Origin: Candidatus Omnitrophota bacterium | GTDB lineage: Bacteria; Omnitrophota; Gorgyraeia; Duberdicusellales; 4484-171 | Direction: 5' to 3' | Assembly (NCBI GenBank): GCA_037146775.1 | Contig: JBAWWL010000007.1 | Location: forward strand, 65,536 to 129,535 | DNA length: 64,000 nt | In this document: in pieces, positions 1 to 57,126 of the stretch | How the letters are laid out: each line of letters opens with the position of its first letter | Numbering within the stretch: the stretch's first letter is position 1 | Position numbers and translations under genes: made by a program | Notes under the pieces: model-generated | Database searches by the model: none | The model's input: only the letters and a program-made list of their open reading frames with translations | Told to the model about the DNA's origin: nothing

Positions 1-85
1 TAACGGTGACGATAGAATAAAAATGTGGAAGTTGTATTTTGAATATTGTAGTGATTTATTTCTATGAAGTGAGGCAATCCTCAGT

Positions 86-6618: not shown

Positions 6619-6789
6619 ATGCCCGACGATCCGCTTGATGATTTTTTAGGATACGATTTCGCGATGGGGACAGATAGCGTAAAGTGCCCGCATTGCGGTC
6701 ATAGTATATCGCGCAGCCTCTTTTTCGACAACGATGACGACGAAATCACATGCCCCAAGTGCGGCAAGAAAGTAGAAGGTAATGAATAA
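6619..6789 (+). CDS. 56-aa zinc-ribbon mini-protein (MPDDPLDDFLGYDFAMGTDSVKCPHCGHSISRSLFFDNDDDEITCPKCGKKVEGNE)
   Basis: two CxxCG pairs; conserved upstream 'gaaattagaaattacca' context; paralogue intact at 46671..46841; below the 60-aa cutoff of the ORF track. Confidence 0.6.
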   Translation: MPDDPLDDFLGYDFAMGTDSVKCPHCGHSISRSLFFDNDDDEITCPKCGKKVEGNE

Positions 6790-8992: not shown

Positions 8993-10243
8993 ATGAAAGT
9001 AGAAAAAATCAAAATTAATCAAATCAATCCAGCACCATATAATCCAAGGGTTATGGAGAGTGTGGAATTCGAGAAACTTAAACAAAGCATAGTTACCTTT
9101 GGTTTTCAGGACCCGATAATATGGAATCAGGAAACTGGATACGCGGTTGGCGGAAACATGAGATTAAGAGCCTTGATTGACTTAGGCTTTAAAGAGGTAG
9201 ATGTAGTCGTAGTTAATTTATCGCTAGCAAAAGAAAAATTATTTAATATCGCTCTGAACAAAATCTCCGGGAAGTTTGATTTAGAAAAGCTAGCTCCTCT
9301 GCTAGAAGAGCTATCGAAAATGCCGGATATCAATTTTGAATTAAGCGGGTTCGACGTCCCCGAATTGTCAGAGATTCTCGATCGTTACAATGAAGCAAAA
9401 GAAGATGATTTTGATACAGAGAAAGTAGTTGAGTCAATTGTTGAGCCGGTCACTAGAAGAGGAGATATCATTGAGTTAGGGAATCACATCGTTCTCTGCG
9501 GTGATGCTTCTAACCCTGAAGATTTAAATCTGCTAATGGGTACTCATTCGGCAGACATGTTGGATGTAGATGTACCCTACAATGTTTCGTACATGGGAGG
9601 AGACCGCCCAAATTCGAATACCCGTCCGAAGAAATCGCGGCAATGGGAAAAAATCTATTCTGATGATATGCCACAGCCGGAATATGAAGCCTGGATGCGT
9701 AAAGTATTTGGAAACGTTAAAGAGCATCTTAAGCTAGGTGCCGCGGCATATTTTTGGCAAGGTCACCGCCAGATATCTCCAATGTATCAGATTTTGCTTG
9801 AGCTTGGGTTTCACATCTCTTCGATCATATGTTGGCTGAAGGAATCAGCGGCCATCTCATATGGCGACTACTCATTTAGGAGCGAGCATGCGCTGTATGG
9901 CTGGTTAGAGGGTGCGCCGCATTACTTCGCGGGAAAACCCGGCTGTAGCAATGTCTGGGAAGTCAATCGCGATCCGACTAAGCAATATATTCATCCAACC
10001 CAGAAACCAGTAGAATTAGCAGCCATAGCCATACGTAACAGTTCTAAAATAGGAGGCATTGTCTTAGATTGTTGTATCGGCGGAGGCGGTGTATTGATAG
10101 CCGCAGAAAGCCTTAATCGCAGATGTTTCGGTATGGAGATCTCCCCTAAGTATTGCGATGCTCTCACACTCCGCTATATCGCCTATGTGGGGCAAGATAA
10201 GGTTTCCGAGGAGATTAAGCGTAAATACTCGAAGGGGGTATAG
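8993..10243 (+). CDS. ParB-like nuclease domain fused to an N6-adenine/N4-cytosine DNA methyltransferase (phage or plasmid type)
   Basis: N-terminus 'INPAPYNPR...VGGNMRLRAL' (ParB/Srx fold); 'DVDVPYNVSY' (DPPY-like motif IV); 'HPTQKPVELAAIAI...VLDCCIGGGG' (MTase motif I/X). Confidence 0.85.
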   Translation: MKVEKIKINQINPAPYNPRVMESVEFEKLKQSIVTFGFQDPIIWNQETGYAVGGNMRLRALIDLGFKEVDVVVVNLSLAKEKLFNIALNKISGKFDLEKLAPLLEELSKMPDINFELSGFDVPELSEILDRYNEAKEDDFDTEKVVESIVEPVTRRGDIIELGNHIVLCGDASNPEDLNLLMGTHSADMLDVDVPYNVSYMGGDRPNSNTRPKKSRQWEKIYSDDMPQPEYEAWMRKVFGNVKEHLKLGAAAYFWQGHRQISPMYQILLELGFHISSIICWLKESAAISYGDYSFRSEHALYGWLEGAPHYFAGKPGCSNVWEVNRDPTKQYIHPTQKPVELAAIAIRNSSKIGGIVLDCCIGGGGVLIAAESLNRRCFGMEISPKYCDALTLRYIAYVGQDKVSEEIKRKYSKGV

Positions 10244-10245
10244 TC

Positions 10246-10914
10246 ATGGAAGATAAGCATATTAAAGATAATGAGATTTCAGTTCATGATGTGTTAAATA
10301 AAATCAAAGACGGTATGCTTGACCCGCGGATTCTTTCCAAGGATGATCGCCAAGCATGCGTAGAAACGTTGACGCTTGAGGGCTTACAGGCATCAGCCAT
10401 AGCGCAGCTTCTTAAGAAAAGTGATAAGACTATTGCCAGGGATATTAAGGAGATAAATGCTAAGAATGCTCTATCGCCTAATGTGGACTTTGTTAAAGAA
10501 ACTGTAGGCCGATTCCTTAAGATGTCGCTAAACCATCACAGCTACCTCATGCGTCTTGCGCGCAACAAGGAGGCAACGATTTCAGAGCGGGCGCTTTCCG
10601 AAGCATCCGCATGGAAGGTTTTGGAAGGCACTATTCAGCGGTTTCAGGCTCTAGGGTATTTGCCTTCCCAGCCAGCACAGGTGGTTGGGAGCTTTTTTCA
10701 TCACATGGATACAGGTAGTGAAGTAAGTGCAAATGATATGAGAAAGACGCTTGCAAGCATTGAAGCCGCAGCCAAGGAAGCAGGTATTTTAGATGCCGAA
10801 ACAGCAAAGAGAATAGATTCTCTTAATGCCAGAATCGAAAAAACAGAAATTGCACAGGAAATAAAGCAGCTTGAAGAAAAACCTACCGAACAGAAGGAGA
10901 AAAGCCATGAATAA
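10246..10914 (+). CDS. putative terminase small subunit / HTH DNA-binding protein
   Basis: position immediately upstream of and overlapping the large terminase; helix-turn-helix-like segment (LQASAIAQLLKKSDKTIARDIKEI). Confidence 0.4.
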   Translation: MEDKHIKDNEISVHDVLNKIKDGMLDPRILSKDDRQACVETLTLEGLQASAIAQLLKKSDKTIARDIKEINAKNALSPNVDFVKETVGRFLKMSLNHHSYLMRLARNKEATISERALSEASAWKVLEGTIQRFQALGYLPSQPAQVVGSFFHHMDTGSEVSANDMRKTLASIEAAAKEAGILDAETAKRIDSLNARIEKTEIAQEIKQLEEKPTEQKEKSHE

Positions 10915-12562
10915 TAATATTAGTAATGACGTTGGAGGGTTACGGAGAAATTTATCAAAAAAGAGCTTAAAATTCTTTGCGGGAACATATTTTAAACATT
11001 ATTGCAAGGTTGGCTTTGCGCCATTTCATCTGGAGTTCTTTGACTATCTTCAGGGCGTTACATTAAAGCGTAACATAAAGTCTGCGGTTGCAGCCCCTCG
11101 AGGTTATGCGAAGAGTACAGTTGTGAGTCTCATTTATGCATTGTGGTGTATTTGTTTCAAATGGGAGAGCTGCATGGTGATTTTTTCATGCACCAAAGAT
11201 CAGTCGCAAAAACTTTTATCCCACATTAAGGATGAACTTAGCACGAACGAAGTATTGCGGGCGGATTTTCCCGATGTATGCGAAATGCCCAATCCCCGGT
11301 GGAGGGTAGATGAGATTATTACCAAAAACAACGTTAACGTAATAGTCTCAAGTGTTGGAAATCGGATACGTGGTGTGCGCTATAAGGAAGAAAGGCCTGG
11401 GCTTGTAATCTTAGATGACGTTGAGACTCGCGAAAATACATGGACTGCTGAGCAAAGAGAAAATATTCTTGATTGGTTCACCAAGGTTGTGCTTAATCTG
11501 GGTGATGAGCGCACTAATTTTATTGTTTGCGGCACCGTGTTGCACTTTGACAGCCTGCTAGCCAAGCTTTTAAGCGGAGAGGAGCTTGCTGGCTGGGACC
11601 ATGAAATTTATAAAGCTATCCTCAATGAAGCAGATTGCAATGACCTTTGGGCTGAGTGGTCTAATCTTTATCGCAGTAGGAATATTTATAAAGGGCAGAC
11701 AGGCCCGGATGCAGCCAGCCTATTTTATAAGGACAATGAATATGACATGCTTAAAGGTGTGCAGGTCCTTTGGAAGGATAAGGAAAGCTATCTTGACCTT
11801 ATGGTTATGCGGGAGCAAAAAGGAATTCCCAGTTTTGAATCAGAAAAGATGAACGAACCCAAAGACTGTAGGGTAAACAGTTTTAACATAAAAACAGTAA
11901 TTTTCTGGGATGATGATTCGCGGCATCCGACTGTAGAGGATTTAAGGCGGTTTTTAGGCACCCGCATTGCCGTCATCGGGGCATGCGATTCGGCAGTGAC
12001 TGTTTCAAGTAGGAGCGACTATTCGGCGATAGTGACGGCTTTTGTAAATCTGTCCAGCAAGGAAAAGGAACTTTATGTGGTTGACGCCGATGCGGGAAGA
12101 TGGAATGTTAACATTCTCATAGAGAGAATCTGCATTTACCATAAAACAAGGGTATATACCACGTTTATCTATGAGGCAAATGCTGCCCAATCTTGGCTTG
12201 GTGAGATGCTAAAGAAGCAGCCAGCTTATATCCCAATAAAACCCATAACGAACACAGAGCCTAAAGAGGTGCGTATAATGAAGATTATGCTTCTTATTCA
12301 GCAAGGAAAAGTAAAGATTTCAAAAAGGCTGGCTGAACTTACACGGCAGCTTTCCCAGTATCCTTACTGTGCGCATGATGATATTATAGATGCCTTATCG
12401 ATGTTGATTGATGCTGCCGAGAAATATGCTAGTATGAATCCCGGTGAAATGAAGATATTTTTTGAGAAAATCAGGAATGGATCTGCTGGCGATAAAGGGA
12501 AAAAGATTATTCTTTACGGCGATAGGCCATTTAATGATTATGGTGGACTATTAGGAATTTAG
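10871..12562 (+). CDS. phage terminase large subunit
   Basis: Walker A-like 'AAPRGYAKSTVVS'; Walker B 'LVILDDVETRE'; C-terminal RNaseH-like nuclease acidic residues (GACDSAV, CAHDDIIDALSMLID); the start may be the internal Met near 10907. Confidence 0.8.
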   Translation: MKKNLPNRRRKAMNNNISNDVGGLRRNLSKKSLKFFAGTYFKHYCKVGFAPFHLEFFDYLQGVTLKRNIKSAVAAPRGYAKSTVVSLIYALWCICFKWESCMVIFSCTKDQSQKLLSHIKDELSTNEVLRADFPDVCEMPNPRWRVDEIITKNNVNVIVSSVGNRIRGVRYKEERPGLVILDDVETRENTWTAEQRENILDWFTKVVLNLGDERTNFIVCGTVLHFDSLLAKLLSGEELAGWDHEIYKAILNEADCNDLWAEWSNLYRSRNIYKGQTGPDAASLFYKDNEYDMLKGVQVLWKDKESYLDLMVMREQKGIPSFESEKMNEPKDCRVNSFNIKTVIFWDDDSRHPTVEDLRRFLGTRIAVIGACDSAVTVSSRSDYSAIVTAFVNLSSKEKELYVVDADAGRWNVNILIERICIYHKTRVYTTFIYEANAAQSWLGEMLKKQPAYIPIKPITNTEPKEVRIMKIMLLIQQGKVKISKRLAELTRQLSQYPYCAHDDIIDALSMLIDAAEKYASMNPGEMKIFFEKIRNGSAGDKGKKIILYGDRPFNDYGGLLGI

Positions 12563-14437: not shown

Positions 14438-15928
14438 ATGAGAGACAAGACTAAAACCTTTCTTTCCAAGAGCAAGTACATGGAAGGGTTGCAATGTAAA
14501 AAACTCCTCTGGTATGAGTATAACCGGAAGGAATTGATTCCGCCGCCTGACCCAGCCAAACAAGCGATTTTTGATGAAGGTACAAAGATTGGAGAAATAG
14601 CCCGTACGCTTTTTCCTGGTGGCATGAAGCTTGAGCGTAATAAATTCCCCGAAGGCCACGATAAACAATCCCGCGAAGCATTAAAAGAACGCCGGCCGCT
14701 GTTTGAGGCCGGTTTTATTGCAAACAGGGGATATGCGTTGGCTGATGTTTTACTTCCGGTAGGCCGCAGCGCATGGGATCTCATTGAAGTTAAAAGCTCA
14801 GCCAGCGTTAAGGAAGAGCATATGCCGGATGTAGCATTCCAGCTTTATACTTATCGTAATGCCGGACTTGACGTGCGTTCCTGCTCTCTTATGTATATTA
14901 ACAACCAATATCTACGTAAAGGTAAGATTGATGCGGGTAAGCTTTTTGCAAAAGAAGATATCAGCGCGCAAGTTGAGGAGTTATTAGGTTATACCAAAAC
15001 CATGCTCCCAAAACTTCTAAGTATTATTGCTCAGTCGGATGAGCCGAAAGTAGAGATTGGCCCGCAGTGCGATAGTCCTTATGAATGCCCGCTTAAGGGG
15101 CATTGTTGGAAGCATTTACCTTTGCATAATAGCGTTTTTACTTTGTATCGCGGGAAAAAACTTGCATTTGAGCTGATGAAGAAGGGAGCCAAAGATTTAT
15201 TCGCAATTCCCAAAGGTACCATGCTTAATGATAAGCAGCAGATTCAACTTGCCTGTTGCGTAAAGAACGATTCTTATGTGGATCGGGATGGTTTGGCCGC
15301 ATTTCTTGAGAAGCTTGAGTATCCGCTGTATTTTCTTGATTTTGAAACGGTTTCTAACGCTGTGCCGTTATATGATCTGTCTCGGCCGTATGAGCAGATA
15401 CCGTTTCAATATTCGCTCCATGTGGTGGAGAAGATAGGTGCTAAGCCGAAGCATTATTCATTTATCGCTCCGGATACGACGGATCCTCGGCCACAGATTC
15501 TAAAGCAGTTAAAAGATTTATTGAAAGACAAAGGTTCAATTATTGCCTATAGCGCGCCGTTTGAAATTGGAGCTCTCGTGCGTTCGGCAGGAATTTATAC
15601 CGATTATATGGATTGGGTGGAAGGCATTAAGGAACGAGTGGTCGATCTGCTTACGCCATTTCGGGCATTTCATTATTATCATCCCAAGCAGGAGGGAAAT
15701 AATTCTTTAAAGGCAGTATTACCGGCTTTAACCGGAATCTCTTATAAAGAAATGGAAATTGCTGAAGGTGAGGTGGCAAGTAAAGAATATGCTCGGGTTA
15801 CTTTCTCGCAAGGTGTAAGTCCGGAAGAGCGCAAGAGGGTATATGAGGCGCTTGAGAAGTATTGCGGCCTTGATACCAGCGGGATGATTGATATATTGCA
15901 GGCGCTTAGGAAGGAAGCAGGGGGATAG
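14438..15928 (+). CDS. DUF2779 domain protein (predicted RecB-family / PD-(D/E)xK nuclease-like)
   Basis: N-terminus 'LSKSKYMEGLQCKKLLWYEY' matches the hallmark DUF2779 start (LSKS+F..GLQC.K+LW); conserved Cys residues in the C-terminal half. Confidence 0.65.
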   Translation: MRDKTKTFLSKSKYMEGLQCKKLLWYEYNRKELIPPPDPAKQAIFDEGTKIGEIARTLFPGGMKLERNKFPEGHDKQSREALKERRPLFEAGFIANRGYALADVLLPVGRSAWDLIEVKSSASVKEEHMPDVAFQLYTYRNAGLDVRSCSLMYINNQYLRKGKIDAGKLFAKEDISAQVEELLGYTKTMLPKLLSIIAQSDEPKVEIGPQCDSPYECPLKGHCWKHLPLHNSVFTLYRGKKLAFELMKKGAKDLFAIPKGTMLNDKQQIQLACCVKNDSYVDRDGLAAFLEKLEYPLYFLDFETVSNAVPLYDLSRPYEQIPFQYSLHVVEKIGAKPKHYSFIAPDTTDPRPQILKQLKDLLKDKGSIIAYSAPFEIGALVRSAGIYTDYMDWVEGIKERVVDLLTPFRAFHYYHPKQEGNNSLKAVLPALTGISYKEMEIAEGEVASKEYARVTFSQGVSPEERKRVYEALEKYCGLDTSGMIDILQALRKEAGG

Positions 15929-16065
15929 TTTAGTTGGAAGTTTTTTTGGGGTTCATGTTTTCCTAATACGCGCAAACTCAATCGCCAAAAAAAGCGGTGC
16001 GTTGAATTGTGTGAGTTGGAATATAGTGAAATTAACTTTAGGGTATTATAGATGGGGGAAGGTCA

Positions 16066-16449
16066 ATGCTATCTAGTAAAGTTGGAATAATTTTAAATAC
16101 GCTTAAGAGTAAGATCGATTCTAGTAAAGGACTCCCAATCTTTTACGATAAAAATGCTAAGTTTGAAAATTGGTTACAAGTGGAATTGTGTGGTATTTTG
16201 TCTGAAAAATGCCAGGCTGAGATTATTCCAGAGCAGTATTCGGAGGCTAATCAATGTTCGTATGATATCTCTGGCGAAAAGGTATTGATTGAGCTTAAAA
16301 TTCATACTACAAAAAAGTCAGCTTCGCATAATATAAAAGGAATTATCAAGGATATCGAAAAATTAAAAAGAGCACCTGATTCAAAAGAAAAAGCAATAAT
16401 TTTTGTAGCTTTCCCGCTAAAGTATAATGATAAGGAATGGGTAACCTAA
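16066..16449 (+). CDS. hypothetical protein
   Basis: 127-aa ORF. Confidence 0.4.
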   Translation: MLSSKVGIILNTLKSKIDSSKGLPIFYDKNAKFENWLQVELCGILSEKCQAEIIPEQYSEANQCSYDISGEKVLIELKIHTTKKSASHNIKGIIKDIEKLKRAPDSKEKAIIFVAFPLKYNDKEWVT

Positions 16450-16582
16450 TTGGAAAATATAGCTCCAAAAGAGAGTTTTATTCGATACTATAGATCATTA
16501 AAGTTTAAGGGTGCCGGTAGAGAAGGTGTTGTGTATTTTATCCAACCGTTGCATAAACTTGAGTCGGTGATATTATAAAAAT

Positions 16583-17524
16583 ATGGCACTTCCTCCTAAG
16601 AGTAACTACGATCATAAGTTTTTTCGCCTGCTGTTTATTTTGAATAAACTTGACCGTGGTGAAAAGGTTTCTACGCTTTCTCTTGCCAAGGAGTTTAACG
16701 TTAAAATCCGCACCGTTCAGCGCGACATAGCCTTGTTATGCGGTACTGGGTTCCTGATTGAATCTCTTGAAAAAGGCACCTACTGTTTTGAAAAAGGTTT
16801 TTCTCTGCGTAAGATCCATCTAAGCGGCGAAGAGGCATCTTTGCTTTCCTTCATGTTTGAAATCGCAAAGTCTTTGGGTTCAAATTTTGAAGGGACTTTT
16901 CGGAGCGTACTGGCTAAGGTAATCCAGAAGGAATATGAATATCCTTATTACGCCAAGATCCCGTCTTCTGAAACATCTTTTAAGGAATTGCCATTCATCA
17001 AGGATCTTGAAAATGCAGTCAGCGATAGCTGTAAGATAAACTTAAAATATAAAAAAGATGACAATTTAAAAGAGTATCACCTGTGCCCCCTTAAGATAAT
17101 CTTTTTTGACGGGTTCTGGTATCTTCTGGCTCAGGGCGATAAAGAGAAGCAGATAGTTAAATTCCGGCTCGACAGGATCAAGCATGTCGCTCTTCTCGAT
17201 GAATATTTTACCCCGCCCGGAAACATAAAAAAGATTCTCGACCAAAGCGCGAATATCTGGTTTTCAGGAAAGAATAAATATAAAGCTATTCTGCATGTCG
17301 ACAAGCAGATATCCGATTATTTCAAGCAGAGAAAATACTTTCCTTCTCAGAAGATAACAAAAAAGAATAAGGATGGTTCGCTTATTATCGAGAGCAGTTA
17401 TTCAGACATGGCAGAAGTAAGCCACACCATAATGCACTGGCTGCCGCATATAGTTGTTACAGGACCAGAAGATTTAAAGAATGAAATCAAGGCTAAGATA
17501 GAAGAATACCGCAAAAGGCTGTAA
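16583..17524 (+). CDS. WYL-domain transcriptional regulator (HTH + WYL; YafY/BrxR/CapW-like)
   Basis: N-terminal HTH 'KVSTLSLAKEFNVKIRTVQRDIALL'; WYL motif 'FFDGFWYLLAQGDKEKQIVKFRLDRI'. Confidence 0.8.
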   Translation: MALPPKSNYDHKFFRLLFILNKLDRGEKVSTLSLAKEFNVKIRTVQRDIALLCGTGFLIESLEKGTYCFEKGFSLRKIHLSGEEASLLSFMFEIAKSLGSNFEGTFRSVLAKVIQKEYEYPYYAKIPSSETSFKELPFIKDLENAVSDSCKINLKYKKDDNLKEYHLCPLKIIFFDGFWYLLAQGDKEKQIVKFRLDRIKHVALLDEYFTPPGNIKKILDQSANIWFSGKNKYKAILHVDKQISDYFKQRKYFPSQKITKKNKDGSLIIESSYSDMAEVSHTIMHWLPHIVVTGPEDLKNEIKAKIEEYRKRL

Positions 17525-17690
17525 AAAGCCTGCTTTCAAGCGATACAACCTTGCCACTACCTCGTGTGGCGCACTTTCTTATTCCGCAAAAATCTTTTTC
17601 AAAGCGACATAACCTTGTCGCATGCCTATGTTACATTTAGAACTATCCTATTGAATATTATATAAACTAACTTGATAATAGCCGGTTTCT

Positions 17691-19190
17691 ATGGCTATAT
17701 ATGCAAAAAGGAGGTGTGTTATGGAACAAACTTTTTCAGCCCAAAGCTTAAATAGTAATACGCTAATAAAGGATGATATCAGCCTTCAGCCTCAAAAAGA
17801 GGCGGTTATTTTGGCTAATGACAAGGAGTATCTCGATGATTATTTTGAGATTTATCGTCTTTATCTACTCAAGCGCACTATTCTGAACAAAATTCAAAAT
17901 AAGCGCTCTAAGTGTGAGTTGTCCGGAAAGGGAAGGTTTAACGGCCGCATTGTCATACTTAATAACCGGATACTAAAGCAGGAGACGATATTCTGGCAGA
18001 AGGTACAAGAGGGTCAAACGCGCGGAATAAAGTTCGCCATTGAGGAAATCGCGGCCAAATTCAATCTGGATTTGTTTGAAAAGAAATTACTGCTTTTTTT
18101 TCTTTACCTTGAATATTTTGCCGTTGAGAAAAATATCTGTATGGAAGACGAATTGCTTTGTATCTTTGATACCGAAAACTCCGTATTGTCCAGAATGCGA
18201 AATAATAAGTATTTTAAGAAGGATTCAGTCCTGCTTAAGAATGGACTGCTTGTCAAGGATTTTAGAGCGAATTCTGCCAGCGCAAGAGCTGAAATTACGC
18301 TTAGTTCCAAGGCGCTGGATATTATTTCAACAGTTTTAAATGGCGGAGAATACCTGGAAGTTGAATCCAAGAAAGCCACTTCCAGCGGAACGATAGGCTA
18401 TGTCAAGGAGCCGGAGTATAAACTTGAGGATATTTTTTTAAATGAAGATATTAAAGGGAAAATTACATTATTTCTGGATGCTTATAGGGATAATAAATTT
18501 GAGGCCTTAGGGGTTACGCAGAGAATAAAGAAAGGTTTAGGCGCGGCGTTTCTTTTTTCTGGCCCTCCCGGAACAGGAAAAAGTATGCTTGCTGAGGCAG
18601 TCGCGGCATACGTCGGGAAGAAGGTGTTGATGGTAGAGTACCCAAAGATAATGGATCACTGGGTTGGTGCGACCGATAAGAATATATCAACAATCTTTAA
18701 AAGCGCTGAAGAGGAGAATCTTGTGGTTATTCTTGATGAAGCAGATACTCTTTTTTATAACAGATCATTTGCTCTTGAAGAACACGATATAAGGTTTGTA
18801 AACGAAATGTTGCAGGAACTGGAGAAGTTTAAAGGCATAATTATCCTTACGACAAATATGGATATTTTACTTGATCCGGCGCTCGAAAGAAGGCTTTCTT
18901 TGAAGGTGAAGTTCGAGCTTCCTCCCAAGGATACACGCTCTCAGATATGGCAGTTCCACATTCCAGACAAAGTCAGGCTGGCAGAAGGGGTTAATTTTGA
19001 GATGCTGGCGGCAAAGTATGATTTCTCGGGAGGCAATATCAAGAATGCGGTTTTAAACGCATTCAGGAAAATGGCCTCAAGAAACAGCGATACGCTTACT
19101 TTGGAAGACTTGATTTTCGGAGCGAACTTAGAGAAAGACGGCATGTTTAATTCCAAGGCCCAAAGAAACGTTGTTGGCTTTTCCTCTTAA
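17691..19190 (+). CDS. AAA+ ATPase with an approx. 260-aa N-terminal domain of unknown function
   Basis: Walker A 'FSGPPGTGKSMLAEAVA'; Walker B 'VVILDEADTLF'; sensor/arginine finger 'ILTTNMDILLDPALERRL'. Confidence 0.8.
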   Translation: MAIYAKRRCVMEQTFSAQSLNSNTLIKDDISLQPQKEAVILANDKEYLDDYFEIYRLYLLKRTILNKIQNKRSKCELSGKGRFNGRIVILNNRILKQETIFWQKVQEGQTRGIKFAIEEIAAKFNLDLFEKKLLLFFLYLEYFAVEKNICMEDELLCIFDTENSVLSRMRNNKYFKKDSVLLKNGLLVKDFRANSASARAEITLSSKALDIISTVLNGGEYLEVESKKATSSGTIGYVKEPEYKLEDIFLNEDIKGKITLFLDAYRDNKFEALGVTQRIKKGLGAAFLFSGPPGTGKSMLAEAVAAYVGKKVLMVEYPKIMDHWVGATDKNISTIFKSAEEENLVVILDEADTLFYNRSFALEEHDIRFVNEMLQELEKFKGIIILTTNMDILLDPALERRLSLKVKFELPPKDTRSQIWQFHIPDKVRLAEGVNFEMLAAKYDFSGGNIKNAVLNAFRKMASRNSDTLTLEDLIFGANLEKDGMFNSKAQRNVVGFSS

Positions 19191-20391: not shown

Positions 20392-20615
20392 TAATCTTGA
20401 GGTGAGCTATAATTTATTATGGTTGAAATTATACCGGCCGGTATTCTTTACGATAAGTCACATTACTTGACAGAGTTTAAATTTATGGCATACTTTTTAT
20501 GGTTACCCGCGTCCCGAGTTAGAAGGATTAAATCCCGGACGTTAAAAAAGCAAAACCTTCGTTGGTCAAGTTATGGCCGATGAGGGTTTTTTTATTTTAA
20601 GTTGAGAGGATAGGT

Positions 20616-21881
20616 ATGGAAACTAAATTAGTCATCGAGGGTGGTCGAAAAATTAAAGGAGAAGTAGAGATCTCCGGCTCAAAGAACGCTTGTTTGCCTA
20701 TATTCGCCGCAACTCTTTTGACGGATGAGCCATGTCGAATTATAGGGGTACCGGGGCTGCGAGATATCAAAACAATGGGCGAGATCCTGGAGCTGCTAGG
20801 AAAAAAGGTGCAGACAGATAGGAACGCTGTAACCATTACCTCAACCACTAAGCGCAGCTTTATAGCAAACTATGAACAGGTTAAAACAATGCGGGCTTCG
20901 TTCTGTGTACTGGGGCCGCTTCTTGCAAAAGCAAAGAGAGCCGAGGTGTCTTATCCCGGAGGTTGCGCAATAGGCGATAGGCCCGTAGATATACATCTAA
21001 GAGGCCTTAAAGAGCTGGGTGCAAGAATAGCTATTGATTCAGGATATGTGGTTGCAAAAGCTCATAAGTTAAAAGGAAGCTATATATATTTAAGTGGGCA
21101 TTTCGGTTCTTCGGTAACGGGTACAGCTAATGTTATGATGGCCGCAACGCTGGCGCAAGGCAAGACAGTGATTGAGGGAGCGGCTTGTGAGCCCGAGGTA
21201 GTGGATTTAGCGAACTTTCTTATTAAGATGGGTGCCCATATCAAAGGGCACGGCACATCAGTCATAGAGGTAAATGGTGTAAAAAAACTACACGGGGTAG
21301 ATTACAGGGTTATTCCTGACAGGATCGAAGCGGGTACTTTTATCCTTGCTGCTTTAATAACTAAGGGAGATATTATCATAAGGAATATCGACTACCGTCA
21401 TTTAGGTGTTGTGGTAGATTGTCTAAGGAAAATAGGAGCGCATATTGATGTGGGGAATAATAAGCTACATGTGGCTTTTAAGAATATATTAAAACCTACA
21501 AACGTGACCACTCTTCCGTATCCCGGTTTTCCGACTGATATGCAGGCGCAATTTGCGAGTTTAATGTGCGTAACTCCGGGGGTAAGCATTATTACTGAAA
21601 AGGTATTTCCCGACAGGTTTATGCATATCGCGGAACTAAGCAGGATGGGGGCGCATATTCATAGGGAGGGTGCAAGCGCTATTGTGGAGGGGGTAAAGAG
21701 TTTATCTGGGGCACCGGTTATGGCATCAGATTTACGAGCCTCGGCTTCTTTGGTGTTAGCTGGTCTTGCCGCAAGGGGCAAGACGTCGATTTCAAGAATC
21801 TATCATCTAGAGCGTGGCTATGAAAATCTGGATAAAAAAATGATTAAATTAGGCGCAAAAATTTGGAAAGAGAAGGATTAA
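20616..21881 (+). CDS. murA: UDP-N-acetylglucosamine 1-carboxyvinyltransferase
   Basis: full-length match to MurA (GSKNACLPIFAATLL..., KTMRASF..LGPLLA, catalytic region 'YPGGCAIGDRPVD', C-terminal 'DLRASASLVLAGLAA.G.T.I.RIYHL.RGYE'). Confidence 0.95.
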   Translation: METKLVIEGGRKIKGEVEISGSKNACLPIFAATLLTDEPCRIIGVPGLRDIKTMGEILELLGKKVQTDRNAVTITSTTKRSFIANYEQVKTMRASFCVLGPLLAKAKRAEVSYPGGCAIGDRPVDIHLRGLKELGARIAIDSGYVVAKAHKLKGSYIYLSGHFGSSVTGTANVMMAATLAQGKTVIEGAACEPEVVDLANFLIKMGAHIKGHGTSVIEVNGVKKLHGVDYRVIPDRIEAGTFILAALITKGDIIIRNIDYRHLGVVVDCLRKIGAHIDVGNNKLHVAFKNILKPTNVTTLPYPGFPTDMQAQFASLMCVTPGVSIITEKVFPDRFMHIAELSRMGAHIHREGASAIVEGVKSLSGAPVMASDLRASASLVLAGLAARGKTSISRIYHLERGYENLDKKMIKLGAKIWKEKD

Positions 21882-21901
21882 GCATGAAGAAAAACATCAG
21901 T

Positions 21902-22029
21902 GTAGAGAAAAATGGTTTTTAATTTAAGGATTTACTTTTTATAGCACTGCGTGATGCACATCACTTGAATAGCCACCTAAAGAATGATTGATTTAGCTTA
22001 TCGTATATCTAGATGTAATATTTGTATCG
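21902..22029. repeat. 128-bp direct repeat, copy A (promoter/operator region; contains palindrome GTGATGCACATCAC)
   Basis: 126/128 identical to 23835..23962; sits immediately upstream of the GmrSD-like gene. Confidence 0.85.
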
Positions 22030-22089
22030 CGCGTATAATAGTTTAATAAGTTTTATAATTTCGAGTCTAAATAATTAATAAGGAGAGAC

Positions 22090-23799
22090 ATGAAAGAATA
22101 CAAAAGAGAAACCATCCAAAAGACAGTAGAAGAAATTAATAAGAACATGTTTTTACCGGATATCCAGAGGCCGTTTGTCTGGGAGGAAGAAAAAATTTAC
22201 AAGTTGTTTGATTCTTTAATGCGGGGTTATCCGATAAGTACTTTTCTTTATTGGGATCTAGCCAGAGAGCAGATTGAGGCGTCCAACATTAAAATGTACA
22301 AATTTGTAGATTCGAATGATGAAGATAGCGCTCAAGTGATGAACGTAGATAAAGATAAGTATTCTTTAGTATTGGATGGGCAGCAGCGATTAACTTCTTT
22401 ATATATATCTTTAAAGGGCTCATGGGTTGAAAAGGTACGTAAAAATACTTTGATAAAAGAGCTTTATTTCAATGTGCTTAGCGGTGGGAACGAAAACGAA
22501 GAAGGTATTCTGTATGAGTTTTGTTTCTTGCCTAAACAATATGGTCCTTTTTATGCAGAAAAGAAGGATGAAGCTTCTGGAGCTAAGGCGTGGGTTAATA
22601 TTAAAAAAGTATATGAAGCGGACCTCGGAAAAAGCGATAAACGTAAATTATTCGTGAAGAAGATTATTGAAACTAATTCCGATCTGAAAACTTATGAAGA
22701 TGCGATAGATGATAATATCGATAAGTTCGATGAAGTCCTTAAGGACCAAGGGATGATTAATTATTTCCCTGAAGATGAAGATAGTTATGATAAGGTTTTA
22801 GATATTTTTGTTCGAACAAATGCCGGTGGAACAAAACTTAGTTATTCAGACCTTCTTTTTTCAAGAATAAAACTTCATTGGGATCAGGCAAGGGAAGAAT
22901 TTAAGGATCTCACTGATGAAATTAATAAGAGGAACTTTGAGTTTGATACAGACTTTATTTTAAAAACAGGTCTAGTATTTTTCTGCACTAAGACAGAAGA
23001 AATAAGATTTAACAACATAAATAATTTGAATAAAAATCTGATTTCTTCAATAAGAAAAAATTGGCTAGAGATAGCTAATGCTATTAAGCTGACAGCTGAT
23101 TTATTGGACAGGTTCATGATAAGGGACAAAAAAATGCTCCCCAGTTACAATGCTTTGATTCCAGTAATATATTGGGTATTTAAAAATAAGAAGGGACGAT
23201 ATTATGACGATAACGACGCCGATAGAAATGAGCTCACAAAAGTAAGAATTTGGTTAACTAAAGCTTTGCTCAGTGGTGTGTTTGGCGGACAATCAGATAC
23301 AGCACTGTATAAATGTAAAGAGGCGATGGATGCCAGTCCGCTGTCTTCTGTTTTTCCGGCAGAGAAAATTCAAGAAAAGATACTTGAGATGAAAAGCAAA
23401 AGTATGGAAATTAGAGAAGATAAATTTGATCAATTTCGCTATCAATCAAAAGAGAGCCATTTATTTTTATCGCTATGCTACAGGTTTGCAATTAATTTTA
23501 ATCCTATAATGAAAGGTAATCTACCGGAACAAGATCATATATTTTCTAAGCATGAATTAGAATTAGCTGGCGTTAGCGAAGATAAAATTAATAGCATATA
23601 TAATATTAGGTACGTTACACAAGCAGATAATAGAAAGAAATCAAAAACGCCATTTTCAGATTGGGTAAGAGATTTAGAAAAAAATAAAGATTTGGTGTTT
23701 AAAATACATAATATACCAGACCGAGATTGGAAGGTTGTTGATTTCGATGTATTCTTGCAAGAAAGAAAAAAACTGTTATTGGCAAACTTACAATATTAG
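22090..23799 (+). CDS. GmrSD/BrxU-like DUF262-DUF1524 protein (type IV modification-dependent restriction endonuclease family)
   Basis: DUF262 signature 'LVLDGQQRLTSLYI' plus N-terminal 'FLPDIQRPFVWEEEKIYKLFDSLMRGYPI'; C-terminal His-Me/HNH-like DUF1524 region 'DHIFSKHEL...NIRYVTQADNRKKSKTPFSDW'. Confidence 0.75.
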   Translation: MKEYKRETIQKTVEEINKNMFLPDIQRPFVWEEEKIYKLFDSLMRGYPISTFLYWDLAREQIEASNIKMYKFVDSNDEDSAQVMNVDKDKYSLVLDGQQRLTSLYISLKGSWVEKVRKNTLIKELYFNVLSGGNENEEGILYEFCFLPKQYGPFYAEKKDEASGAKAWVNIKKVYEADLGKSDKRKLFVKKIIETNSDLKTYEDAIDDNIDKFDEVLKDQGMINYFPEDEDSYDKVLDIFVRTNAGGTKLSYSDLLFSRIKLHWDQAREEFKDLTDEINKRNFEFDTDFILKTGLVFFCTKTEEIRFNNINNLNKNLISSIRKNWLEIANAIKLTADLLDRFMIRDKKMLPSYNALIPVIYWVFKNKKGRYYDDNDADRNELTKVRIWLTKALLSGVFGGQSDTALYKCKEAMDASPLSSVFPAEKIQEKILEMKSKSMEIREDKFDQFRYQSKESHLFLSLCYRFAINFNPIMKGNLPEQDHIFSKHELELAGVSEDKINSIYNIRYVTQADNRKKSKTPFSDWVRDLEKNKDLVFKIHNIPDRDWKVVDFDVFLQERKKLLLANLQY

Positions 23800-23834
23800 C
23801 ACACGATGCAAAAATTATATATACATTCTAAAGC

Positions 23835-23962
23835 GTAGAGAAAAATGGTTTTTAATTTAAGGATTTACTTTTTATAGTACTGCGTGATGCACATCACTTG
23901 AATAGCCACCTAAAGAATGATTGATTTAGCTTATCGTATATCTAAATGTAATATTTGTATCG
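23835..23962. repeat. 128-bp direct repeat, copy B
   Basis: near-identical to 21902..22029; upstream of the TPR gene at 23981; a third partial copy (approx. 38 nt) at approx. 54640..54680. Confidence 0.85.
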
Positions 23963-23980: not shown

Positions 23981-24703
23981 ATGATAAATCGCATAAAGGA
24001 AGTAGATTTTAATTCGGAGAAGGGAAGATTGTTAGATCGTGCATTGGCTCACTCAAAATTGAGGCTGTATAAAGAAGCAATTGCTGATTGTGAGAATCTT
24101 GTAGCACTGGATAAAGATGATCCAAATTCTTACAGAGAGCTGGGGGTTTCGTATGCAGAAAACAATCAAATTGATAAAGCTATAGAGTGCTATCGTTTTG
24201 CTATAAAGCGTTTCCCTGATTACCATGCAGCCTATACAAGCTTAGGGCATCTATTTCAGGAATACAAAAAACGATTGGATATTGCTCTGGTGTGTTATGA
24301 AAAGGCGTTAAAGCTTAACCCTGAAGATTTTTGGGCATTGCATAATATTGGTACTGTTTTAAAGAAAGAACAAAAAATAAAAGAAGCCTTTTATTATTTT
24401 CAAGAGGCGTTCCAAATAGCACAAGCTAAGGGAATCTTTGAGCGGAAAATAATTCATAATTTGGCGTGGGCCTTATATCGGTGTAAGGAATACCAAGCCG
24501 CACTTTATTTGTATACGCAACTTGATGATCCATATAGTACCGATGGTTCTATCCATTTTGAACTCGGTTGTGTTAATTATAGAATAGGTAGATTCCAAGA
24601 CGCTGTTTTACAATTTGCAGAAGCGTTAGCTTGTCAGCCAGGCAATAAGTTTTATCAGCGTGCACAGAACATAGTAATTTGTAAATCCGGCATTTATAAT
24701 TGA
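23981..24703 (+). CDS. TPR-repeat protein
   Basis: multiple TPR-like A..Y.....A...DP motifs (AIECYRFAIKRFPDYHAAYTSLG, ALVCYEKALKLNPEDFWALHNIG). Confidence 0.7.
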   Translation: MINRIKEVDFNSEKGRLLDRALAHSKLRLYKEAIADCENLVALDKDDPNSYRELGVSYAENNQIDKAIECYRFAIKRFPDYHAAYTSLGHLFQEYKKRLDIALVCYEKALKLNPEDFWALHNIGTVLKKEQKIKEAFYYFQEAFQIAQAKGIFERKIIHNLAWALYRCKEYQAALYLYTQLDDPYSTDGSIHFELGCVNYRIGRFQDAVLQFAEALACQPGNKFYQRAQNIVICKSGIYN

Positions 24704-25523: not shown

Positions 25524-25676
25524 ATGGCTAGTAATGAGTATTGTCGGGTAACGTTCGGGAAGAATATTGAAGAAAAAGAACGCCAACGTGTACGGGCAGC
25601 ACTCGAGAAATATTGCGATTTAGATACAAAGGGGATGATGGAAATATTGGAGGAATTAAAAAAAGTTTGCAGATAG
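25524..25676 (+). pseudogene. relic of a DUF2779-protein C-terminus (MASNEYCRVTFGKNIEEKERQRVRAALEKYCDLDTKGMMEILEELKKVCR)
   Basis: clear homology to the last approx. 45 aa of the 14438..15928 product (ARVTFSQGVSPEERKRVYEALEKYCGLDTSGMIDILQALRKE). Confidence 0.55.
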
Positions 25677-34810: not shown

Positions 34811-35240
34811 CAAAATTGAAGCTGAAGCCCGATGTCCACCTAAAAGAGGCGGACATGCCTTATCTATCTCTGCTATAATGAATTACACCAATTTATCTCC
34901 AGAAATAGCGGACATTTTGGACAAATATCGCCGATAAGCCAACCTCTAAAGTCTACAATTTCCTTGTTATTTGCCAGAATCGTACCTATAATAATGATTA
35001 CACAGTAAGAGATTCTCTTATTCCTGTGCCATCTAAGCGGAGTTTTGCTTAATACCCTCCATCGTTTAATGGAGGGTATTTTTTTGTAAAAACTCCCCGG
35101 GTAGGGCGAAGAATCCCGAGGAGCTTCTTGTAAATTTAATTTGTAAATTTACAAGATATATATGGGCGAGTCGGGAGAGAGCCAGCGTTTGCAGCTTTTG
35201 ACTTTATAACCCTCTGTGATAGTATATTGCAGAGGGTTTT
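34811..35240. repeat. approx. 330-bp structured intergenic element, copy 1 (5' hairpin ATGTCCACCTaaaagAGGCGGACAT + core + extra terminator-like hairpins + short CTCTGTGATA..CAGAGGG palindrome)
   Basis: core approx. 85-90 % identical to 39235..39572, 49904..50217 and 57313..57568. Confidence 0.8.
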
Positions 35241-35273
35241 ATATTGATTGAATAATAAGAAAAAAAGGGGTGT

Positions 35274-36645: not shown

Positions 36646-36771
36646 GTTTCTTTAGATTGGTTCGAACCTCTGTGAGAGTCTAAACGAAACTTAGGGTTTT
36701 GAAGCGAAGCACACAAAATTCCTTAGTTGAGTTATCCTCTGTGAGGGCTATCTGGGTAGCTATTGCCTTCT

Positions 36772-36862
36772 TAACCCTCTGTGATAATATAGTGCCAGTT
36801 TCACCGCAAAGTGATTGACTAGGCTAACAGGTCACCCTGTTGAGTAGACAGCCAGAGGGATT
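36772..36862 (+). promoter_or_regulatory. long version of the palindromic promoter-associated motif (AACCCTCTGTGATAATATAgtGCC...CAGAGGG) upstream of 36900
   Basis: same motif as at 39484..39572 and 50127..50217; contains the extended -10-like 'TGTGATAAT'. Confidence 0.5.
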
Positions 36863-36899
36863 TTTATTTAGGGTAAAATAATAAAAACGGAGGTGCGTT

Positions 36900-37313
36900 A
36901 TGAAGATAGAAAAAATAATTATTACGGCACTGGCGGTTTCGCTGTTCGGTGCGATTTTTTCAGGCGTTACCTGTGGATGGTTGTTTAATTGGGTATATAA
37001 ACTTGAGCCGACAAATGTTTGGAAGCCGATGGATGGCCCGCCTGACTTAATATTTTACATAGGAAGTTTCTTGCTCAACATAGTTCTCGCAGTTGTTTAT
37101 GCGTTACTCCGCAATGGTATTCCTGGGAAAAATAAATTAACCAAAGGCCTCATTTTCGGATTATGTGTTTGGGCTGTTGGTATGTTACCCGGGATGTTTT
37201 CAACCTATTCTTTTATGACAGTGGCTATTGGCACTGTCATTTATTGGACTATTTTAGGTTTGGTTGAAATACCGATTAAAGGTCTAATAATCGCTGCCAT
37301 ATACGGCGAATAA
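36900..37313 (+). CDS. small integral membrane protein
   Basis: four predicted hydrophobic helices; RBS 'aacggaggtg'. Confidence 0.5.
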   Translation: MKIEKIIITALAVSLFGAIFSGVTCGWLFNWVYKLEPTNVWKPMDGPPDLIFYIGSFLLNIVLAVVYALLRNGIPGKNKLTKGLIFGLCVWAVGMLPGMFSTYSFMTVAIGTVIYWTILGLVEIPIKGLIIAAIYGE

Positions 37314-37611: not shown

Positions 37612-39153
37612 ATGTTACGTAAAATCATAATTATAAGTTTAGCTGTTTTAGCCGTGACGAATTGTATAGCTTCCCTTAAAACATATGCCGCTGTCCCAAA
37701 AGACATACTTAAAGTTCAAGATCCTAAAATAAAACCGATCAAGGATGGGCAAGACAAAAAGCCTCCATTGCCGGATCTGGTTGCCGCATATGTCGATCTC
37801 AGACCTTGGGGTGGAGGCGGCGAGCGTCCGATCTCTACCGGTGCCAACTGTGGCATCACCGGCTCTATCCGCAATAACGGCGCCGAAATGGCGCGTAATG
37901 TTAATTACGAGCTATTGCTGGATGGGCGAGTTATCCACAGTGGCCGGGTAGACATTATGGGCGGCGCGAGCGTACAGGTGAATAGTGAATTTAATCTTGC
38001 GTTCAATGAGCCCGGCAATCCGGAAGTCACGCTGGTAGTGGATGGACGAGGCGATATTGCCGAGAGCAATGAATCGAACAATAGAGTGAGCCGGCGAGCT
38101 ACGGTGCAGAATTTAGATGATCTTGTGGAGGTGACCGGGGTTGAATTTATGGTTAATGGACGGGCAGTTGAAGAAACTATTGTTGGTCAGAGCGGCACGC
38201 TTAGGGTTCGGGTGCGTAACAACAGCCGCCAGGCGCTGAGTAATGTGAGTGTTTCAGGAAGACTGCAAGATACGCAGGATCAGTTCCAAAGGCTTGATCT
38301 GGCGCCTAACCAGGAACAGCAAATAGAGTTTTCTAATTTAAGTTTCCGGAGTCCGGGCGATAAACTCATAACCGGCAGAGCTTCGCTGTCGAACAACCGC
38401 GAGGACGCTAATCCCCGCAATGATTGGATGCAGCGGGGGATGACCGTACGGATGAACGAGAATAGGGAGCCGGATCTGGTTGCCGCATATGTCGATCTCA
38501 GACCTTGGGGTGGAGGCGGCGAGCGTCCGATCTCTACCGGTGCCAACTGTGGCATCACCGGCTCTATCCGCAATAACGGCGCCGAAATGGCGCGTAATGT
38601 TAATTACGAGCTATTGCTGGATGGGCGAGTTATCCACAGTGGCCGGGTAGACATTATGGGCGGCGCGAGCGTACAGGTGAATAGTGAATTTAATCTTGCG
38701 TTCAATGAGCCCGGCAATCCGGAAGTCACGCTGGTAGTGGATGGACGAGGCGATATTGCCGAGAGCAATGAATCGAACAATAGAGTGAGCCGGCGAGCTA
38801 CGGTGCAGAATTTAGATGATCTTGTGGAGGTGACCGGGGTTGAATTTATGGTTAATGGACGGGCAGTTGAAGAAACTATTGTTGGTCAGAGCGGCACGCT
38901 TAGGGTTCGGGTGCGTAACAACAGCCGCCAGGCGCTGAGTAATGTGAGTGTTTCAGGAAGACTGCAAGATACGCAGGATCAGTTCCAAAGGCTTGATCTG
39001 GCGCCTAACCAGGAACAGCAAATAGAGTTTTCTAATTTAAGTTTCCGGAGTCCGGGCGATAAACTCATAACCGGCAGAGCTTCGCTGTCGAACAACCGCG
39101 AGGACGCTAATCCCCGCAATGATTGGATGCAGCGGGGGATGACCGTACGCTAA
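37612..39153 (+). CDS. secreted CARDB-domain protein containing a perfect 699-bp (233-aa) tandem duplication
   Basis: signal peptide; 'PDLVAAYVDLRP...VVDGRGDIAESNESNN' is the CARDB end-motif; 37771..38469 is identical to 38470..39153; GC approx. 55 % against approx. 36 % in the flanks. Confidence 0.65.
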   Translation: MLRKIIIISLAVLAVTNCIASLKTYAAVPKDILKVQDPKIKPIKDGQDKKPPLPDLVAAYVDLRPWGGGGERPISTGANCGITGSIRNNGAEMARNVNYELLLDGRVIHSGRVDIMGGASVQVNSEFNLAFNEPGNPEVTLVVDGRGDIAESNESNNRVSRRATVQNLDDLVEVTGVEFMVNGRAVEETIVGQSGTLRVRVRNNSRQALSNVSVSGRLQDTQDQFQRLDLAPNQEQQIEFSNLSFRSPGDKLITGRASLSNNREDANPRNDWMQRGMTVRMNENREPDLVAAYVDLRPWGGGGERPISTGANCGITGSIRNNGAEMARNVNYELLLDGRVIHSGRVDIMGGASVQVNSEFNLAFNEPGNPEVTLVVDGRGDIAESNESNNRVSRRATVQNLDDLVEVTGVEFMVNGRAVEETIVGQSGTLRVRVRNNSRQALSNVSVSGRLQDTQDQFQRLDLAPNQEQQIEFSNLSFRSPGDKLITGRASLSNNREDANPRNDWMQRGMTVR

Positions 39154-39572: not shown

Positions 39573-39617
39573 TTATTTTAGAACGGAAGAGGTAGAATTA
39601 AAAAAAAGGAGTTACGA

Positions 39618-46533: not shown

Positions 46534-46670
46534 TTATTATTAAGCAGTCAGATAACAGGTTCAGGTGTTGCCTGCCGCAAAGCGGCGAGGTCTCGCTCGC
46601 TCGCCTCACGGCGAAGCCGTGGGCCTCTCGGCGAAGCCGAGGGTCTTCGGCGGAAAAGCTGAAATTATTT

Positions 46671-49878: not shown

Positions 49879-49903
49879 TAATAAATTTCCCTTAAGAATG
49901 GCA

Positions 49904-54620: not shown

Positions 54621-54959
54621 TAAGATGAAGGGGCCGGCGCAAAAATTATATAAAACATTCTAAAGCGTAGAGAACATTGTTTCTCTGCCAACGATTTAGC
54701 TTCTTATACCGCTGATCGTTTTGTCAAACTTCAAGTATCCACAAAAAAATAGATATTTAAACATCTAGGAGTATAATATCGACAGAACAGTTATTGAAGG
54801 ATCGTTGTTTTAACTCACCATATACCCGGATATAATATTTGTACCGTGCGGGTTTCGTGTGGCGGTAAAACAAAAGCAAGAGGCGGGGTAGGCTATTAAG
54901 TATCGGAGAATTAGTTACGAGTTGCAAGCTTGTAAGGGGCAAAAAAAGGAGGAATTGAA

Positions 54960-55133: not shown

Positions 55134-55235
55134 GAGAGTTTTTCCTTCCGTTTTAATGATGAGGGTTCCCTCTGGATATAACATTTACGCCGTGTGACCT
55201 TTTATCCCGGGAATTAAAAAAAGAAATAAAAAATA

Positions 55236-57122: not shown

Positions 57123-57126
57123 TTTT

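Follow-up and report, generated by a model that had tools for sequence, protein, structure and literature searches.

The Correia elements of Neisseria are bacterial miniature inverted-repeat transposable elements (MITEs) with outward-facing promoters, and composite units bracketed by two copies of a MITE or of an insertion sequence (IS) are represented by MITE-flanked integrons and integron mobilisation units. MITEAba12, an element of 113 bp, carries outward promoters and keeps target-site duplications in 40% of its copies, many others being found without them (PMC6382973). Among restriction enzymes of type IV, BrxU of E. fergusonii pEFER is recognized by the motifs RLFDS, DGQQR and DHIYP (PMC8565348) and is the same system as HEC-05 (bioRxiv 10.1101/2024.01.29.577857). 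Core genes are known to flank hotspots of defence genes, as in the cDHS of P. aeruginosa (PMC10250203) and the defence islands of E. coli (PMC10121019). Here we analyze a locus that brings these elements together in a 64,000-nucleotide stretch of a Candidatus Omnitrophota genome (contig JBAWWL010000007.1; the window hereafter), in which a restriction gene of the BrxU/GmrSD family lies 3′ of murA and is bracketed by directly repeated copies of a non-coding unit that we name E. The reading we favor, to which we assign a probability of about 0.5, is that two MITE-like and putatively promoter-bearing copies of E flank a gene residing in a defence hotspot, and that the repeats reflect proliferation of the element and not a duplication generated by arrival of the gene.

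The direct repeat extends over 131 nucleotides (nt), at 21899-22029 (copy A) and 23832-23962 (within copy B), with a spacing of 1933 nt. The copies share 129 of 131 positions in blastn and pairwise alignment, the boundary mismatch at position 3 being counted (98.5%), and single-base differences between them fall at three element positions, 3 (the left edge) and, internally, 48 and 113. A chance origin of the repeat can be excluded, because the two copies align within the window with a blastn E-value of 2.5e-65. A first-pass annotation of the window, made from its sequence alone, had described this same repeat with slightly tight limits (128 bp, 126/128 identical) and had rightly placed each copy just upstream of a gene start, at 22090 and 23981. 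It had read the arrangement as the outcome of a gene insertion that duplicated a local promoter region, or as a cassette carrying its own copy of the promoter.

The repeat is part of a longer unit with defined ends. Copy B is complete, with 159 nt on the plus strand (23804..23962), beginning 4 nt past the stop codon of the restriction gene and finishing 18 nt ahead of the start codon of a TPR protein gene; its left terminus, CGATGCAAAAATTATAT (23804-23820), recurs as an inverted repeat in its right terminus, ATGTAATATTTGTATCG (23946-23962). Copy A (21899..22029, plus strand) corresponds to positions 29-159 of B and is truncated on the left, the first 28 nt and with them the left terminal inverted repeat (TIR) having been lost, and starts 18 nt past the murA stop codon. 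Copy C (54635..54846, plus strand) is complete but diverged, with 212 nt that include an internal insertion of about 53 nt and 78% identity to B over the aligned columns; its termini, CGGCGCAAAAATTATAT and ATATAATATTTGTACCG, form a 17-nt inverted repeat with 82% complementarity, and it lies upstream of a gene for a 57-residue Zn-ribbon protein at 54960. An isolated right terminus of an E-type element (CGGCGTAAATGTTATAT, with two mismatches to the consensus) is present on the minus strand at 55176..55192, 44 nt upstream of a VF530-family gene (Pfam VF530) at 55236. The first-pass annotation had reported a third partial copy of about 38 nt at 54640..54680, which is real and far longer than had been thought: in nhmmer all of copy B is matched by 54633-54852 (E=1.3e-8), from a point 28 nt before the A/B repeat onward, and the first ~26 nt of copy C match 23806-23831, to the left of copy B's share of the 128-bp repeat. 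Of the related motifs that it had noted, the one before 54960 is the right terminus of copy C and the one before 55236 is that of the solo end.

The termini of E are imperfect TIRs of 17 bp with consensus CGRYRCAAAWATTAYAT. This consensus has six matches in the window where 0.5 are expected, five of them being the ends of copies A, B and C and the sixth the solo end. The left ends of B, C and a copy in a second genome (locus L013) start with CGRYGCAAAAATT, in the form CG[A/G][C/T]GCAAAAATTATAT, and are preceded by unrelated flanks; on the right, A, B and C all terminate in AATATTTGTA[T/C]CG (GTAYCG), beyond which the flanks are again unrelated, and the right limit of the identity between A and B is the exact terminus of E. 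The symmetry of the ends of copy B (21 matches in 27 positions, score 15) exceeds the maximum of 12 observed in 5000 control pairs drawn genome-wide and was reached by one of 2000 shuffles. The termini also co-vary within each copy, both reading CGAT... in B, and CGGC... and CGGT... in C, so that the third base is A at both ends of one copy and G at both ends of the other.

The L013 copy is partial, spanning 2734-2863 of contig CAZUZR010000003.1, which comes from an unrelated metagenome-assembled genome, is labelled 'uncultured Planctomycetia' and has a guanine-cytosine (GC) content of 37%, close to the 39% of the window. It is 79% identical to C and 85% identical to B, and shows no flanking homology to the window copies. 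A truncated remnant of an rve_3 gene (integrase core, DDE transposase) lies on the minus strand of the same contig at 2909-3112, with the E copy 45 nt beyond its 3′ end; we regard this remnant as a lead on the cognate transposase, not as proof. Two E probes had 0 matches among viral contigs, and blastn of the whole unit of E and gene returned no relevant match among phage records. Since the same exact ends recur in unrelated contexts (B, C, the solo end and L013), the repeats are copies of a discrete, non-coding, TIR-bounded element with exact, context-independent ends. The proposal of a local promoter region duplicated by gene insertion thus gives way to a discrete element that has terminal inverted repeats of its own and of which copy A is a left-truncated representative. 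Copies of such an element on either side of the gene, or a unit of element and gene that recombined into a copy already in place, account for the arrangement better than a duplicated target does. E is short (159 nt in B, 212 nt in C), AT-rich and without any conserved open reading frame (ORF), and it is present in multiple copies in unrelated contexts, albeit in small number.

A promoter-like sequence occupies the right end of the element. The motif that had been pointed out at the 3′ end of the repeats is there as sequence: a regex scan locates TTAGCT-17-TAATAT on the plus strand at 21993..22021 in copy A, with a predicted transcription start near 22028, and at 23926-23954 in copy B, and the right end of copy C reads TTAACT-17-TAATAT. 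The looser pattern TT[AG]NC[TA]-16..18-TA[AT][AT]AT, picked after the sequences had been inspected, matches the plus strand of the window nine times where 2.7 matches are expected, with 7/9 matches directly upstream of genes; four of the matches belong to another repeated upstream module, which has TTG[C/T]CT-16-TAATAT with a preceding extended -10 TG (TGATAATAT). If functional, the right end of E would be an outward-facing promoter of sigma-70 type with its start approximately at the final base of E, such that copy A would drive the restriction gene and copy B the operon headed by the TPR gene.

These promoter-like features can also be taken as the essence of E, which would then be an immobile, native bidirectional promoter or regulatory region whose symmetric ends are two divergent -10 regions and whose copies arose locally by segmental duplication or gene conversion, leaving the restriction gene and the TPR operon each with a promoter. 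The left end of copy B does carry, on the minus strand, a TATAAT without mismatch (23814-23819), facing outward like the TAATAT of the plus strand at its right end (23949-23954); the left end of the L013 copy faces a divergently transcribed ABC-transporter operon; neither target duplications nor a cognate transposase were found for E; and many other repeated upstream modules in the window have a similar promoter architecture. The symmetry, however, runs 10 nt past the -10 hexamers to the exact ends and co-varies within copies, which is superfluous for a promoter, and if E were immobile, its 79-85% identity to a copy in an unrelated genome, where the flanks share no homology, would be difficult to account for. 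Furthermore, the TPR orthologue examined (locus L029) has no E upstream. We therefore hold an immobile native promoter to be quite improbable.

The element shows no sign of forming a structured nucleic acid. Its RNA folds with a z-score of +1.8 and its DNA with z-scores of +1.0 (+0.99) and +1.1 (+1.13) on the two strands, weaker than shuffled sequences, and Rfam gives no match to E at the gathering score or at E<=1. Identification of E as a riboswitch, a small RNA or an attC site is consequently unsupported. These results bear directly on the possibility that the repeats are attC sites and the restriction gene a promoterless integron cassette, an arrangement called to mind by a single gene bracketed by repeats of ~130 nt, by the common orientation of all genes in the window and by its many repeated intergenic modules. 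The lack of single-strand hairpin potential (z = +1.0 to +1.8) effectively refutes the attC reading; moreover, no integrase was found among the window ORFs, E itself carries a promoter-like site, and the other repeats of the window are heterogeneous, some of them coding. We accord the integron cassette next to no credence.

Other candidate functions of the repeat were dropped. The palindrome reported in the initial annotation is present in both copies, at 21951..21964 in A and at 23884-23897 in B, as an imperfect one: a sequence scan resolves it into a 6-2-6 inverted repeat, GTGATG-CA-CATCAC (GTGATGCACATCAC). Copy C and L013 do not conserve it, and the window has no other good copy, not even upstream of the gene for a WYL regulator; its role as an operator common to the family is thus unsupported. 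A resemblance of the left end to dif/Xer or hix sites was a by-eye idea and was abandoned, the spacing of the conserved blocks differing among copies. Nor do the repeats behave as the att sites of an integrative element, which usually overlap the end of a conserved gene: the segment that they flank consists of the restriction gene only, the left repeat lies 18 nt past murA and does not overlap it, and there is no recombinase among the window ORFs, a resolvase beside murA being seen only in the relative L028.

According to the favored history of element proliferation, the restriction gene would already have stood between murA and the TPR gene, and E would have landed in, or been copied into, both of the AT-rich spacers around it. 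Such a history would require an element that is mobile or copyable, plus one truncation. In silico removal of copy B leaves TAG-CACATATGGAGGTGTATCTAAT-ATG, a spacer of 22 nt with a GGAGG ribosome-binding site before the TPR gene that constitutes a normal operon junction, and removal of copy A leaves ~78 nt between murA and the restriction gene, close to the 75 nt observed in a relative (L017) with a gene of the same family at this place. Like bacterial MITEs with outward promoters, such as MITEAba12, E is short (159 nt), non-coding and AT-rich, has imperfect terminal inverted repeats, lies in intergenic spacers near gene starts with predicted outward promoters, and is represented by truncated and solo-end copies; it differs from them in having no target-site duplications, no identified cognate IS and a very low known copy number, and its transposition is a presumed one. 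The arrangement also resembles MITE-flanked composite units in that a single cargo gene is enclosed by a pair of small TIR elements of one family in direct orientation. In contrast to those units, the left E copy has no outer terminal repeat, so the pair is now immobile as a unit, and there is no outer target duplication.

Several results weigh against proliferation of a mobile element. Target-site duplications are absent from the flanks of the E copies (B and C compared), an absence compatible with old insertions or with transposases that generate no duplication. No autonomous IS with matching ends was found, and a Pfam domain scan of the window ORFs of at least 100 residues identified no transposase or integrase. 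The known copies of E number only 4-5: a scan of 185,579 species genomes with the single 18-mer ATTCTAAAGCGTAGAGAA produced six matches, of which one, in L013, is real, and the nine matches to the same probe in JGI metagenomes are all attributable to chance, the E family not being found there. Ordinary two-ended transposition cannot have delivered copy A truncated as it now is, and an extra deletion or partial-copy event is needed. The filled-versus-empty comparison by which a mobile insertion is defined is likewise missing, no relative having been found with this allele of the restriction gene next to murA and without E. Finally, the promoter-like site of E fails a stricter consensus scan, its -35 hexamer agreeing with TTGACA at 3/6 positions, and the evidence that the right end of E serves as promoter for the restriction gene and the TPR operon is suggestive only, the activity being a predicted one.

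The gene between the repeats (22090..23799, plus strand) is their sole intervening ORF, looks intact and encodes a type IV restriction enzyme of the BrxU/GmrSD family with 569 residues. Its assignment is supported by a match to Pfam GmrSD_N/DUF262 over residues 11-260 (1.4e-31), by a full-length match to the PADLOC model HEC-05 (positions 1-568, 2.5e-129) and by alignment of residues 9-522 of 569 with the sequence of the BrxU crystal structure 7P9K (3.7e-49). The motifs KLFDS, DGQQR, DHIFS and ADNRKK are found at residues 38, 96, 482 and 512. The description of the protein as DUF262 (with DGQQR) plus DUF1524 in the first-pass annotation holds for its DUF262 portion and its BrxU/GmrSD identity; the Pfam DUF1524 model has zero matches within residues 351-569, even at E<=10, and the C-terminal domain is a putative one, assigned from the BrxU alignment and the DHIFS motif. 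The gene is preceded by a unique AT-rich leader of 60 nt (22030..22089, plus strand) with TATAAT-like boxes and a ribosome-binding site.

The protein shares with BrxU a single-polypeptide architecture, an N-terminal DUF262 domain with DGQQR and an RLFDS-like KLFDS, motifs of nucleotide binding and hydrolysis, and a putative C-terminal His-Me nuclease region with a DHIYP-like DHIFS. As with BrxU, its gene is located among other defence-type genes, and relatives pair the family gene with a WYL (BrxR-like) regulator. It departs from BrxU in being encoded on an Omnitrophota chromosome outside any BREX or Hma locus, in having its nearest WYL gene 4.6 kb upstream and not adjacent, and in the Pfam DUF1524 model falling below significance. 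By homology, the enzyme would be expected to act in the manner of BrxU, through nucleotide-dependent cleavage of phage DNA with modified cytosines, and modified phage DNA is accordingly its predicted substrate. Enzymes of the family cleave DNA with modifications such as hmC or glc-hmC and protect against the phages that carry it.

The left neighbor of the locus, murA (20616..21881, plus strand; UDP-N-acetylglucosamine 1-carboxyvinyltransferase; Pfam EPSP_synthase, 2.8e-107), is a conserved anchor gene whose product is 100% identical to MEI8349861.1 at NCBI, from a Candidatus Omnitrophota metagenome-assembled genome that also holds MEI8349862.1; the protein sequences of the locus agree in full with entries from that genome. 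A mini-ORF of 12 codons (21885-21923) that starts 3 nt after murA was discarded, its frame not being conserved in copy B. Relatives with MurA identities of 84-95% supplied five contexts for the slot downstream of murA, on as many short metagenomic contigs. In L017 (MurA 87% identical at the amino acid level) murA is followed by a GmrSD-family gene 25% identical to that of the window, a WYL regulator and a TPR gene; in L016 (86%, amino acids) by a third GmrSD-family gene, with 24% identity; in L015 (87%, amino acids) by two unknown genes; and in L028 (89%, amino acids) by a gene of 76 codons and a HAD-like gene, with a serine resolvase upstream of murA. In L027 (94%, nucleotides) murA is followed by the same linker of 18 nt and by the first 49 nt of E, at which point the contig ends. 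In L028 homology to the window ceases at the murA stop codon, where the variable slot begins; in L015, L016 and L017 it ceases no more than ~10 nt from that codon. The GmrSD genes of L016 and L017 sit directly after murA, at 23-25% identity to the window gene, so that the slot holds three mutually unrelated GmrSD genes or other genes. The slot 3′ of murA is a defence hotspot with contents that are swapped between relatives. Its neighborhood in the window contains other defence-like genes, coding for a WYL regulator, an IetA-like ATPase and a Cas4-like DUF2779 protein.

As in the P. aeruginosa cDHS and the E. coli defence islands, a core gene, here murA, edges a slot with varied and mostly defence-related cargo, and homology breaks at its stop codon; the murA slot differs from them in being based on five short metagenomic contigs and in having an undefined right core boundary. 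No mobile-element backbone was identified at the slot. On the right side, copy B is followed by the gene for a TPR protein of 240 residues (23981..24703, plus strand; Pfam), and then by genes for an ADP-ribosylglycohydrolase, an HSDR_N_2 protein, an HD protein and another TPR protein. Orthologues of the first TPR protein are at most 71% identical; upstream of the one examined (L029, 66% identical) there is no E.

The nearest homologues of the window allele of the restriction gene (82%, 82% and 78% amino acid identity) reside in other contexts, one of them directly preceding a WYL regulator, and share with the window only the ORF, from 22076/22089 to 23799. By sequence comparison the allele clearly appears horizontally mobile, and its GC content is 0.332, versus 0.446 for murA. 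Both features, together with the hotspot nature of the slot, fit a history in which the gene brought one copy of E along, as in the second option of the first-pass annotation, a cassette with its own promoter copy. E would then act as portable homology and promoter, and a circular or tandem unit of 1,933 bp, comprising a complete E, the leader of 60 nt, the restriction gene and 4 nt, would have recombined homologously, in Campbell fashion, with a truncated E already resident behind murA. The repeats recur at a period of exactly 1,933 nt and are 98.5% identical, and the 28 nt to the left of copy B's repeat belong to the E family, as though the incoming unit had been complete and the resident one truncated. 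The truncated murA-E junction stands alone in L027, where the contig ends inside E, and other gene blocks of the window are bracketed by repeated intergenic modules and gene-end remnants, pointing to frequent recombination at such modules. Against this, the history takes more steps (a donor locus with E beside the gene, circularization and crossover), and E is absent from the flanks of the four nearest homologues of the gene (L003-L008, L032), 0/4 contexts carrying it. Neither an empty site nor a circle junction was seen, and the junction of copy A, as found in L027, predates 6% of murA divergence, which is not very recent unless L027 is itself an empty site. We consider arrival by recombination at E a live alternative, though less likely than proliferation of the element.

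An empty site with a single repeat and no restriction gene was sought and did not appear. Exact protein matches to MurA, the restriction enzyme and the TPR protein come only from Logan contigs of the same sample, which break inside the repeats; no clean murA-E-TPR site exists among the five contexts of MurA relatives, and the TPR orthologues are too distant to help. The arrangement is not demonstrably recent, because L027, with 94% nucleotide identity in murA, already has the murA-E junction; L027 shows that this left junction predates 6% divergence in murA, and nothing further, and none of the available relatives has both repeats together with the gene.

The breaking of the independent Logan contigs inside the repeats, and the origin of the window in a metagenome-assembled genome, could suggest that an assembler threaded a contig with the restriction gene into a collapsed repeat. 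The three differences between A and B, at positions 3, 48 and 113, are nonetheless closer to each other than a read length, which makes their phasing straightforward, and the Logan assembly of run SRR12676968, made independently of the window, carries the same restriction gene. In its unitigs the 5′ side of the gene is joined to the A-type base at 113 and the 3′ side to the B-type base at 3, while the TPR gene is joined to the B-type base at 113, exactly as in the window. The arrangement is not an assembly artefact, since independent Logan contigs tie copy-specific bases to the same flanks, and we rate misassembly as very improbable.

Neither component of the locus is of a new kind: one is a type IV restriction enzyme of BrxU type, the other a MITE-like repeat with a predicted promoter in a hotspot anchored by a core gene. 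What is new is the phylum and the particular element family, and the locus is an ordinary genome mosaic, not a new system. For Omnitrophota, which are known almost exclusively through metagenomes, the analysis contributes a restriction gene of BrxU type and a defence hotspot linked to murA, and it identifies in this phylum a small family of TIR-bounded repeats with predicted promoters. It also serves as a warning that the direct repeats enclosing a defence gene may be copies of an independent element rather than the scar of the gene's insertion. Were the repeats instead the product of a recombinational cassette, they would illustrate a simple, integrase-free way of shuffling defence genes with their promoters. 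In a broader and decidedly speculative extension, E elements would generally act as portable promoters and homology arms, and defence genes would move as E-gene units by RecA-type recombination or as MITE-pair composites. If so, these units would be an integrase-free analogue of integron cassettes, with the murA slot as one docking site, and the same process would have left its traces in the window's other repeated promoter modules and gene-end remnants.

Additional features were noted around murA and in the slots of relatives. Just upstream of murA, at 20467-20598, lies a unit resembling a small RNA, with a strong promoter-like site (TTGACA-16-TG-CATACT), ~60 nt of sequence and a terminator with a 17-bp stem (20552-20590); it has no Rfam match, and a stretch of 63 nt that includes the terminator (20538-20600) is 76% conserved in L017 (4207-4265), there between the WYL and TPR genes. 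Farther upstream, the genes at 8993-12562 and 14438-19190 resemble prophage remnants and defence genes, and encode a ParB-N/N6_N4 DNA methylase and terminase-like, DUF2779, WYL and IetA-like AAA ATPase (PADLOC 1e-35) proteins. In L003 the nearest homologue of the restriction gene is found between DUF2779 and WYL genes, a pair that is adjacent in the window without it. An intact DUF2779 paralogue is present in the window at 14438-15928, and 25524-25676 holds a 3′ remnant of 50 codons from a DUF2779/Cas4-like gene, 78% identical at the amino acid level to the intact gene in L029; this remnant indicates that genes have been replaced downstream of the TPR/ADP-ribosylglycohydrolase pair. The serine resolvase of L028 is small, lies directly upstream of murA (262-804) and may bear on rearrangement of the neighborhood.

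The window is rich in other repeated sequences. A family of small zinc-ribbon genes (~56 residues, MxDDPxDEF...CPHCG...CPKCG; Pfam Zn_Ribbon_1/DUF7575) has members at 6619-6789, 46670-46841 and 1160-1332, one copy being frameshifted. Stubs of nine codons (MPDDPFDEF*) occur at 527, 42850, 44485 and 54588, just past the stop codons of upstream genes, and one of them is immediately to the left of copy C. An upstream module of ~330 nt is found in copies 76-86% identical at 34812-35264, 36763-36906, 39238-39582, 49902-50261, 57314-57438 and 63151-63193, and carries a good extended -10 promoter-like site (TTGYCT-16-TGATAATAT) before the unrelated genes at 36900, 39618 (PilZ), 50254 and 63225. Within a CARDB-domain gene (37612-39153), a repeat of 681 nt is 100% identical between 37770-38450 and 38469-39149, 699 nt apart, and stems either from a duplication inside the gene of very recent date or from a fault in the assembly. 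Lastly, a free-standing ORF of 51 codons (57132-57287) encodes a protein 100% identical to the C-terminal end of a lipoprotein-like gene product of 144 residues (49444-49878); the surrounding repeat of 178 nt (49715-49892 versus 57124-57301) is 95% identical, with its differences outside the shared coding part, and ~160 nt of the flanking intergenic module are duplicated as well.

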